Below are positions 3,916-4,086 of a stretch of 15,960 nt of DNA, in pieces. The notes under the pieces are model-generated. The model had not been told where the DNA came from and ran no database searches. It saw only the letters and a list, made by a program, of their open reading frames with translations. The number at the start of each line of letters is the position of its first letter. Within the stretch, counting starts at the first letter, position 1. This DNA comes from a virus, in the IMG/VR virus record IMGVR_UViG_3300046832_002460. The stretch is one strand, 5' to 3'. Made by a program: the position numbers and the translations under genes.

Positions 3916-3945
3916 TTGACACACAGATAAATATCAATATACTGA
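3916..3945 (+). promoter_or_regulatory. promoter TTGACA-N16-TATACT for the tRNA-like RNA
   Basis: TTGACA at 3916-3921 and TATACT at 3938-3943. The RNA starts 16 nt downstream. Confidence 0.4.
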
Positions 3946-3959
3946 ATATATAGAGCGCT

Positions 3960-4046
3960 GCCCCTGTACCAGCCCTGGTTTCTACCCAGCAGAAGCTGTA
4001 ATTGGAGGCGATAGCATCAATGTGGGTTCGAATCCTGCCAGGGGCG
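3960..4046 (+). tRNA. 87-nt tRNA-like RNA with encoded CCA (4047-4049); non-canonical core, possible Arg(UCU)-type anticodon loop; may be a divergent tRNA, pseudo-tRNA or stable tRNA-like RNA
   Basis: A perfect 7-bp acceptor GCCCCTG (3960-66) pairs with CAGGGGC (4039-45). The T-arm is GTGGG-TTCGAAT-CCTGC. The only good internal hairpin is CAGC-c-CTGG-TTTCTAC-CCAG-cagaa-GCTG, whose loop is TT-TCT-AC. No canonical D-arm could be placed by eye. Confidence 0.4.
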
Positions 4047-4086
4047 CCAAAACCTTTTCCCAAACTTCCACGTGGGTAAATACGGC

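Follow-up and report, generated by a model that had tools for sequence, protein, structure and literature searches.

How can an RNA with a complete acceptor stem, a T-arm, an encoded CCA and an arginine (Arg) anticodon be a transfer RNA (tRNA) if it has no D-arm at the usual site? The question is raised by a gene at positions 3960-4049 of a 15,960-nucleotide (nt) stretch of viral DNA, IMG/VR record IMGVR_UViG_3300046832_002460, the source of which is an uncultured phage. We call this whole stretch the window and give all positions in its numbering; numbers from 8 to 73 are tRNA-style equivalents used for the gene family. Our reading, to which we give a probability of roughly 70% on the basis of sequence, is that the gene encodes a functional tRNA-Arg(UCU) with a permuted core. 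The observations that carry it are the sequence features of the RNA, the covariation of its helices, the distribution of its family, the restriction of that family to Arg anticodons and the natural replacement of the gene by a canonical allele.

A tRNA-type gene with no D-arm at the usual site

The gene and its promoter consist of the following elements. Type 1 denotes the group of 90-nt genes with a UCU anticodon, which comprises the window gene and nine homologues (n = 10).

3916..3943, + strand: sigma-70-type promoter, with TTGACA at 3916-3921, a 16-nt spacer and TATACT at 3938-3943
3960..4049, + strand: whole gene of the putative non-canonical tRNA-Arg(UCU), scored at 107.9 bits by covariance model R1
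3960..3966, + strand: acceptor 5' strand GCCCCUG, pairing 7/7 with 4039-4045
3967..3969, + strand: connector U8 A9 C10, invariant in type 1, with U8 in 29/29 family members
3970..3973, + strand: outer helix 5' strand CAGC, pairing with 3995-3998, proposed equivalent of D-stem 22-25
3974..3990, + strand: anticodon arm, aligned by Rfam to the tRNA anticodon arm
3991..3994, + strand: 4-nt bulge that separates the anticodon stem from the outer helix 3' strand, AGAA in the window and AGWA in the family
3995..3998, + strand: outer helix 3' strand GCUG, proposed equivalent of D-stem 10-13
3999..4006, + strand: D-loop-like strand UAAUUGGA, proposed to supply A14, A15, U16, U17, G18, G19 and A20
4007..4021, + strand: variable-arm-like linker GGCGAUAGCAUCAAU, which could form a mini-hairpin GAU-NNC-AUC
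4022..4038, + strand: T-arm GUGGG-UUCGAAU-CCUGC, with five pairs, two of them G.U, and a UUCRANY-type loop
4039..4049, + strand: acceptor 3' strand CAGGGGC (4039-4045), discriminator G4046 and CCA (4047-4049)

The 7/7 acceptor helix, the TTCGAAT T-loop, the encoded CCA and the 87-nt size, all named in an original prediction made from the letters of this DNA, can be read directly from the sequence; the RNA is 87 nt long without CCA and 90 nt with it, and ends as tRNAs do in a 7-base-pair (bp) stem, an unpaired discriminator and a 3' CCA. The anticodon stem CUGG/CCAG joins 3975-3978 with 3986-3989 in 4 bp, with a C.C mismatch at 3974/3990, and its 7-nt loop UUUCUAC (3979-3985) has U33, the anticodon UCU (Arg) at 3981-3983 and a purine at 37 (A37), exactly as predicted. 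The claim that this tRNA-type gene has its own promoter also stands, in that TTGACA and TATACT lie 16 nt apart at 3916-3943. These hexamers agree with the consensus at 11 of 12 positions, a near-consensus match of a kind that the promoter scan finds about equally often in shuffled sequence. Transcription is predicted to start at about 3950, giving a leader of about 9 nt, and the gene begins 17 bases past the -10 hexamer; expression of the gene is predicted from this promoter.

Two standard tools agree that the D-arm is missing from its usual site, as had been claimed. ARAGORN makes a single call in the window, a tRNA-Gln at 1194-1268, and returns nothing for 3960-4049, whether as a transfer-messenger RNA (tmRNA) or as an odd tRNA, a check that the original prediction had proposed. 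The Rfam tRNA model (RF00005) aligns 3960-4046 end to end at 26.3 bits, below its gathering score of 29, by deleting the D-arm and placing a 28-nt insertion in the variable region before the T-arm; a homologue at locus L022 of our collection likewise stays below 29, at 28.7 bits. Only 3 nt lie between the acceptor and the outer helix, and there is no D-arm 5' of the anticodon arm. That the gene might be an ordinary type-II tRNA with a normal D-arm that had been overlooked was named at the outset as the finding that would overturn the original prediction. Such a tRNA is rejected here: there is no 5' D-arm, the anticodon is UCU, and neither ARAGORN nor Rfam at its gathering threshold reports one.

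Ten homologues of equal length with covarying helices

A megablast search of the region against phages gave no match, and homologues emerged only with BLAST in its distant mode. This sensitive search found copies with 79-84% identity in Sinorhizobium phage Phosso (469 kilobases, kb) and Ochrobactrum phage vB_OspM_OC (228 kb; phage OC), unannotated in both, and pattern scans of IMG/VR and metagenomes added seven more. The alignment with homologues for which the original prediction had called therefore holds nine further 90-nt sequences, and the wide family to which they belong lay beyond what that prediction could see. All ten type-1 sequences, from unrelated phages and metagenomes, are exactly 90 nt long with zero indels. 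Two pattern scans of bacterial and archaeal genome contigs gave no true match, and loci L007-L014, L016, L018, L020, L021, L026 and L027 were discarded as chance coding matches to the pattern.

We tested a type-1 structure made up of the acceptor, the outer helix (alignment columns 11-14:36-39), the anticodon stem (16-19:27-30), the T-stem and a candidate third hairpin. Standard pairs fill 98.5% of its cells and 14 of the 26 tested pairs show compensatory changes among the ten sequences, a level of pairing and covariation reached by 0 of 500 shuffles; sliding the partners against each other lowers pairing to 36-50%. Compensatory changes occur in all four helices. They affect six of seven acceptor pairs among the ten homologues (7/7 among 26 family members) and three of four anticodon-stem pairs, and three of the five T-stem pairs are double-changed. 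The outer helix is 100% paired in its variants CAGC/GCUG, CGGU/ACCG, CGGC/GCCG and CAGU/ACUG, with two of four pairs double-changed. RNAalifold, run on the type-1 alignment, independently draws these four helices (acceptor, outer, anticodon and T). All ten members have the anticodon loop YUUCUAM, the 27:43 equivalent is always a pyrimidine-pyrimidine mismatch with the AGWA bulge next to it, and the 23 nt from the outer helix to the T-arm are nearly invariant. Because it has nine homologues of equal length and compensatory changes in every helix, the window gene is not a decayed one.

Proposed parts of a D-arm in a different order

The original prediction held that no D-stem can be placed. We consider this incorrect. 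The outer 4 bp, 3970-3973/3995-3998, covary, have the length of a D-stem and stack on the anticodon stem, and the D-loop-like strand UAAUUGGA comes next. In ordinary tRNA the D-stem is coaxially stacked on the anticodon stem, and the core runs in the order D-stem 5' strand, D-loop, D-stem 3' strand, anticodon arm, variable loop. The strand UAAUUGGA, which is UAACAGGA in L024 and UAAUCGGA in L025, varies only at the equivalents of 16 and 17, where real D-loops vary as well. Its AAUUGGA is also the D-loop (A14 A15 U16 U17 G18 G19 A20) of canonical phage tRNA-Arg(UCU) genes (L001, L043). Given the covarying outer helix and UAAUUGGA, the parts of a D-arm are all present, in the order 3' strand, anticodon arm, 5' strand, loop. 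The earlier suggestion of a divergent or armless tRNA-Arg thus holds as to arginine and fails as to a simple loss of the arm, since its parts exist in altered order.

In terms of chain connections, the core would have exchanged 9-10, 21-22 and 48-49 for 9-22, 47-10 and 21-49. In tRNA crystal structures the six residues of these swapped connections cluster in the core. We propose that the bulge at 3991-3994 is the counterpart of variable-loop nucleotides 44-47, and that the last base of the linker, U4021, is U48, the partner of A15 (4001). The D-stem-like and anticodon stems would form one continuous hairpin (4 bp, mismatch, 4 bp) of normal overall length, with the D-loop-like strand leaving at its elbow end. 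Without the 14-nt linker, and with its segments put back in the usual order, the RNA would be exactly 76 nt long.

A wider family restricted to arginine

A covariance model built from the ten type-1 sequences gave second-tier matches with the same layout, the loop CUACGAA and the anticodon ACG, which ARAGORN misses too. The ACG type occurs in further viral contigs, where 11 loci matched the pattern, three of them already in the set, and in the cultured phages Rhizobium RHph_I1_18, Xanthomonas BUDD, X1 and Xoo-sp13, Stenotrophomonas DLP_6, RAS14 and CM1, and Microbacterium Zooman. The GenBank records of these phages hold no tRNA feature at the ACG-type sites, the CM1 record being without any annotation. 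We also scanned 319 kb of collected sequence for the layout with the anticodon itself unconstrained. Two of its 31 distinct matches are canonical tRNAs whose D-arm was mis-parsed as a hairpin. The remaining 29 all have Arg anticodons (15 ACG, 13 UCU, 1 CCU), and four of them were found without any sequence pattern: UCU genes of a second type in L028, L029 and L033, and a 76-nt CCU gene in L029.

The features that the permuted core would need are kept across the family. The equivalents of U8, A14, G18, G19 and A20 are present in 29/29. Position 15 and the base before the T-stem (48) are A/U in 26 members and G/C in three, with no mixed cases, a pattern like that of the R15-Y48 Levitt pair; the three G/C cases are the UCU type-2 sequences. 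Across the whole family 97.6% of cells pair, and double changes affect 18 of 21 pairs. After GGA the linker is 3 to 21 nt long, and in the longer ones hairpins can often be drawn, with unrelated sequences; because its length varies and the hairpin sequences are unrelated, the linker behaves like a variable arm. The smallest members, the L029 CCU gene of 76 nt and the Zooman ACG gene of 79 nt, have linkers of 3-5 nt, and a third hairpin is therefore not a requirement.

For bacterial arginyl-tRNA synthetase (ArgRS) the main identity elements are A20 and C35; U36 or G36 also belongs to the set and A/G73 is a minor element. C35 with U36 or G36 is found in 29/29, as follows from the anticodons UCU, ACG and CCU, and GGA, that is A20 after G18 and G19, is likewise found in 29/29, its A being equivalent to position 20 in three dimensions if the proposed fold is right.

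Three observations were made beside the family proper. In Rhizobium phage RHph_I1_18 (MN988519; L037 595-675) the locus tags skip EVB91_035 exactly at the rewired ACG-type RNA, between tRNA-Ile (036) and tRNA-Phe (034), and a feature at this site may have been predicted and then dropped in curation. Escherichia phage KookSpook (L036 570-641) has a T5-like relative with an acceptor stem, U8, a 4-bp helix ACGG/CCGU, UAACUGGU, GGAAGAU and a T-arm; it has a 10-nt loop in place of the anticodon hairpin, U for A20 and no encoded CCA. Of 96 matching records, largely those of T5-like phages of Salmonella and Escherichia, most contain the same 33-nt match, annotated as 'tRNA-OTHER', as 'tRNA-Ser' or not at all. 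This relative may have arisen from the ACG type by degeneration or repurposing. Finally, a viral contig with an ACG-type rewired tRNA-Arg also carries a permuted tmRNA according to ARAGORN (L034 7709-8095, - strand; 'tmRNA*', tag peptide VQNQMGANDNVPFAVAA).

tRNA arrays and exchange with canonical alleles

Rewired genes sit in phage tRNA arrays, where they usually supply Arg anticodons that are otherwise missing. Phage OC, with a genome of 37.7% GC, has 24 tRNAs annotated by tRNAscan-SE and ARAGORN (PMC7139368), of which the sole canonical Arg tRNA is ACG, plus the rewired UCU gene. In L025 a canonical CCU is joined by rewired UCU and ACG; L028 and L033 have canonical CCG and CCU with rewired ACG and UCU; and L029 combines canonical UCG with rewired ACG, UCU and CCU.

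The window locus itself exists in two forms. A 467-amino-acid (aa) gene of the window is found on other contigs, one of which, L045, is identical to the window, and two of which, L043 and L044, carry a swapped allele. These two are at least 99.9% identical to the window from 4025 onward and upstream of 2820, and the intervening segment is replaced. Within the replaced segment the same promoter, TTTATAGGTTGACACAC[A/T]GATAAATATCAATATA, precedes a canonical tRNA-Arg(tct) that ARAGORN recognises, and about 25 nt past this tRNA the last 25 nt of the rewired gene persist as a remnant. A second exchange is seen in syntenic arrays, in the slot after tRNA-Cys and the UCU type-2 gene: L033 (8011-8087) and L028 (380-456) have a canonical Arg(CCU) there, and L029 (3987-4062) has the 76-nt rewired Arg(CCU), the smallest family member, with the linker AAU. 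Because of the natural swap, we consider canonical and rewired genes to be interchangeable at one locus under one promoter. The possibility that the window RNA derives directly from the canonical L043 allele was rejected, as their acceptor stems differ.

The cassette that differs between the alleles includes a divergently oriented endonuclease gene:

3070..3816, - strand: HNH-type homing endonuclease gene, 248 aa

Its protein gives a weak Pfam HNH match and a match to PHROG 655, 'homing endonuclease', at E = 1.4e-35. In its place L043 and L044 carry a 280-aa homing endonuclease of PHROG 314 (L043 273-1115, - strand). More generally, homing endonuclease genes of the HNH and other PHROG families are interspersed with tRNA genes, and the window has two more at 1296-1970 and 10770-11342, both on the - strand.

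In L022 (10500-10690, - strand; ERZ650311 NODE-37) a copy of the rewired tRNA-Arg lies inside an apparently broken tRNA-Lys-like gene, with the acceptor 5' strand GGAACCG, a normal D-arm and the 5' strand of an anticodon stem upstream, and CGGTTCC-A-CCA downstream. This arrangement suggests insertion or recombination within tRNA arrays.

A probable functional tRNA-Arg with a permuted core

If the window RNA is a functional tRNA-Arg(UCU), its tertiary fold, aminoacylation and use in translation could be as follows. The gene would be transcribed from its own sigma-70 promoter; RNase P would trim the 5' end, and trimming of the 3' end to the encoded CCA would suffice for maturation. The chain would run through U8-A9-C, the 22-25-like strand, the anticodon arm, the 4-nt bulge, the 10-13-like strand, UAAUUGGA and the 15-nt linker ending in U48 to the T-arm. 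Stacked on the anticodon stem, the D-stem-like helix would give a continuous hairpin and a limb of normal length, and the free D-loop-like strand would make the contacts of elbow and core, namely U8-A14, A15-U48 and those of G18/G19 with the T-loop. The same strand would present A20, which together with C35 would allow recognition and charging by the host ArgRS. An L-shaped product of this kind could be used by host ArgRS, EF-Tu and the ribosome, and would read AGA and probably AGG. AGA is the commonest Arg codon in the open reading frames (ORFs) of the window (67 of 216), which use AGG 34 times.

Several points weigh against this reading. Transcription, processing, charging and decoding are predictions from sequence. 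Folding of single sequences is uninformative: the minimum free energy structure is another, non-tRNA fold (z = -1.2), lies 0.5 to 8 kcal/mol below the bare four-helix structure and differs in most members. The covariation of 15 with 48 may reflect a single evolutionary event because it rests on one three-sequence clade. The analogy to a D-stem is weaker in the ACG type, where the helix consists of two invariant C-G pairs plus mismatches in most members; it pairs better in RAS14 and Xoo-sp13. The discriminator is not uniform, being G in seven type-1 sequences including the window, A in one and U in two, and U in many ACG-type members. Microbacterium phage Zooman has a canonical Arg(ACG) directly beside its rewired ACG gene, and the rewired form is therefore not always gap-filling. 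An un-permutation test with ARAGORN, in which columns 36-47 were moved between 9 and 10 and columns 48-61 dropped, had 9/10 constructs called as 76-nt tRNA-Arg(tct), and proved non-specific, as constructs with an unrelated 12-nt insert were called tRNA-Arg in 10/10 cases and those with a shuffled one in 6/10. Because control inserts are also called, we do not count this test as evidence; it mainly shows that ARAGORN needs the spacing of a D-arm.

A broader and more tentative proposal, which we hold at slightly less than even odds, is that phages possess a second, unrecognised body plan for translating tRNAs, one that is confined to arginine (UCU, ACG, CCU), has a cyclically permuted core connectivity, keeps the L-shape and ArgRS identity, and is maintained by escape from a host tRNA-targeting defence or from a homing endonuclease. 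On that proposal it would be the first natural tRNA to be topologically rewired in its mature form. Two candidate reasons for the permuted form can be named: the RNA may elude a factor that attacks canonical tRNA-Arg, or the gene's DNA may be immune to neighbouring homing endonucleases.

Alternative explanations

The second of these candidates is also a reading of origin in its own right, and one compatible with a functional tRNA-Arg, in which the permuted order is kept since it renders the gene's DNA resistant to free-standing homing endonucleases that target conserved tRNA-gene sequence. Homing endonuclease genes flank both alleles (PHROG 655 in the window, PHROG 314 in L043), the allele boundary, at 4025, falls within the tRNA gene and a 3' remnant is left behind, as expected of endonuclease-driven gene conversion, HNH genes are interspersed in the tRNA array of phage OC, and SegB-type endonucleases act in the tRNA regions of T-even phages (PMC13096335). 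We nevertheless regard this origin as improbable, about one chance in five, because it leaves the restriction to arginine unexplained, no cleavage site is known for it, and many family members lie in dense arrays without an adjacent endonuclease gene.

A plain D-armless tRNA-Arg would be functional without the core contacts of canonical tRNA, as in mitochondrial tRNA-Ser(AGY). The anticodon helix would be extended, the 23 nt before the T-arm would be a long variable arm (AUUGG...UCAAU), and the likeness to a D-loop would be coincidental or ancestral. Such tRNAs are established to work in mitochondria, and RNAalifold does draw a third hairpin AUUGG/UCAAU at 42-46:58-62 of the type-1 alignment, which constrained folding adds as well. 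This hairpin was rejected as a feature of the family: the changes at columns 43 and 44 in L024 and L025 break its pairs without compensation, and members with 3-5-nt linkers cannot form it. UA-R-..-GGA is moreover kept in 29/29 members of four subfamilies whose linkers are otherwise unrelated, and the 15 and 48 equivalents covary. We consider a plain loss of the D-arm unlikely, somewhat more so than the endonuclease origin.

Just as unlikely, in our estimate, is a tRNA-like RNA that acts outside translation, either as a decoy or sponge for a tRNA-Arg-binding or tRNA-Arg-cleaving host factor, or as a regulator that titrates ArgRS or a modification enzyme. Many defences attack tRNAs, and phage tRNAs have been proposed as a counter to them (PMC10264068, PMC12409363); the odd body could be a poor substrate for the ribosome, and the adjacent canonical and rewired ACG genes of Zooman would fit a role of this sort. 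However, the acceptor and T-stems, CCA, U33, the purine at 37 and the limb length are all kept, as translation demands, rewired genes usually fill the Arg anticodon gaps of their array, and the window gene is replaced in other contigs by a canonical tRNA-Arg(UCU) under the same promoter.

The original prediction had left room for a decayed tRNA retained as an integration or processing signal. A decayed or rearranged pseudogene, or a relic kept as attP or as an RNA-processing signal, would accord with the rejection of the gene by tRNA finders and with arrays in which homing endonucleases generate fragments (the L043 remnant, the broken tRNA of L022, the T5-like relative). Because of the covariation we regard it as largely refuted and give it only a few chances in a hundred: compensatory changes affect every helix, the length is 90 nt in ten phages, the anticodon loop is kept and the family is Arg-only, canonical tRNA-Arg(UCU) substitutes for the gene in sister contigs, a Pfam scan of the ten largest ORFs of the window finds no integrase, and the related phages are large and of virulent type. 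A tmRNA is rejected (pair 3:70 is C-G and not G3.U70, an anticodon hairpin is present and the ARAGORN tmRNA search is empty), and a viral 3' tRNA-like structure or an attP site does not fit the sequence features.

Comparison with known tRNA types

Canonical tRNA-Arg(UCU), represented by RF00005, the L043/L044 allele and the T4-type phage tRNA-Arg, shares with the window RNA the 7-bp acceptor, discriminator and CCA, the 5-bp T-stem with UUCGAAU, the 7-nt loop with U33, UCU and A37, the D-loop AAUUGGA, U8 and a pair of the A15/U48 type, as well as promoter and locus. The window RNA differs in that its D-stem strands and D-loop are non-contiguous and flank the anticodon arm, it has no position 26, its anticodon stem is of 4 bp plus a pyrimidine mismatch, and it has an extra 14-nt linker; it stays under the Rfam threshold and escapes ARAGORN. 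In functional respects it thus resembles an ordinary tRNA-Arg, and it departs from the structural definition of the cloverleaf in the site of its D-arm and in its Rfam score. Type-II tRNAs (Leu, Ser, Tyr) are similar to it in their 85-95 nt and in a segment of variable length, often hairpin-forming, just before the T-arm; they differ in that a normal D-arm precedes the anticodon arm and in that their anticodons are not those of Arg.

D-armless mitochondrial tRNAs, such as metazoan mt-tRNA-Ser(AGY/AGN) and the 'minimal' tRNAs of nematodes and mites (PMC2797822), also have no hairpin between acceptor and anticodon arm, an extended anticodon helix and an anticodon of the AGR/AGN box. They are shorter and have neither the D-loop nor the elbow contacts of G18/G19, whereas the window RNA exceeds normal length, has a canonical T-arm and comes from a bacterial phage. 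Behind its 3-nt connector, both a helix of D-stem length and a D-loop-like strand bearing GG and A20 are conserved.

Circularly permuted tRNA genes, known from Cyanidioschyzon merolae and others (PMC3978253), establish that tRNA segments can be encoded in permuted order. In those genes the 3' half precedes the 5' half and a circular intermediate yields a normal tRNA (PMC3978253). The window gene is not of this class: its acceptor ends are in normal order and the permutation is internal and would persist in the mature RNA, and no bulge-helix-bulge (BHB) or processing motifs are evident in it. Allo-tRNAs and tRNA-Sec-like 8/4 and 9/3 tRNAs (PMC5389517) are likewise natural non-canonical architectures that were mined from metagenomes and missed by standard tools; they change the lengths of acceptor and T-stem and keep the normal order of arms, whereas the rewired family keeps 7/5 and reorders D and anticodon elements. 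Phage tRNAs proposed to evade tRNA-targeting defences (PMC10264068; T5 tRNAs against PARIS, PMC12409363) are likewise phage copies that differ from host tRNAs in ways that could keep nucleases from recognising them. Known examples carry point changes of the anticodon loop or stem; in the rewired family the body plan is altered and the anticodon loop is ordinary. The literature that we searched held no earlier description of such tRNAs, an absence that is not proof of novelty.

Should these RNAs be charged and decode, the universal order of the cloverleaf (D, anticodon, T arm) would not be obligatory for a tRNA of the cytoplasmic type. Such a result would bear on tRNA folding, on recognition by ArgRS and on tRNA engineering, for example of orthogonal scaffolds. 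The homologues in Phosso, OC, RHph_I1_18, BUDD, X1, DLP_6, RAS14, Xoo-sp13 and Zooman carry no tRNA feature, and because standard annotation misses these genes the Arg decoding capacity of tRNA-rich phages is systematically under-counted. The restriction to arginine, together with the swapping of canonical alleles beside homing endonuclease genes, offers a handle on the diversification of phage tRNAs.

Other features of the window

A second unusual tRNA gene lies at 1044-1181 (+ strand). It is of type II and tRNA-Leu-like, with the acceptor GCCCGAA/UUCGGGC-A-CCA, a D-arm, a variable arm and a T-arm, and its anticodon loop (CUCAG...) is split by a structured insertion of about 53 nt with two hairpins (fold z -3.3). 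A group I intron would be far longer than this insertion, which is shared by no INPHARED phage record; the gene scores 44.8 bits with the Rfam tRNA model and is missed by ARAGORN. At 7960-10449 (+ strand) the window encodes an 829-aa protein with the shoulder and repeat domains of the major vault protein, which is 37% identical to proteins of uncultured metagenomic phages of 460-735 kb (LR756500, LR756501). A saccharopine-dehydrogenase-like protein is encoded at 4678-6081 (+ strand).

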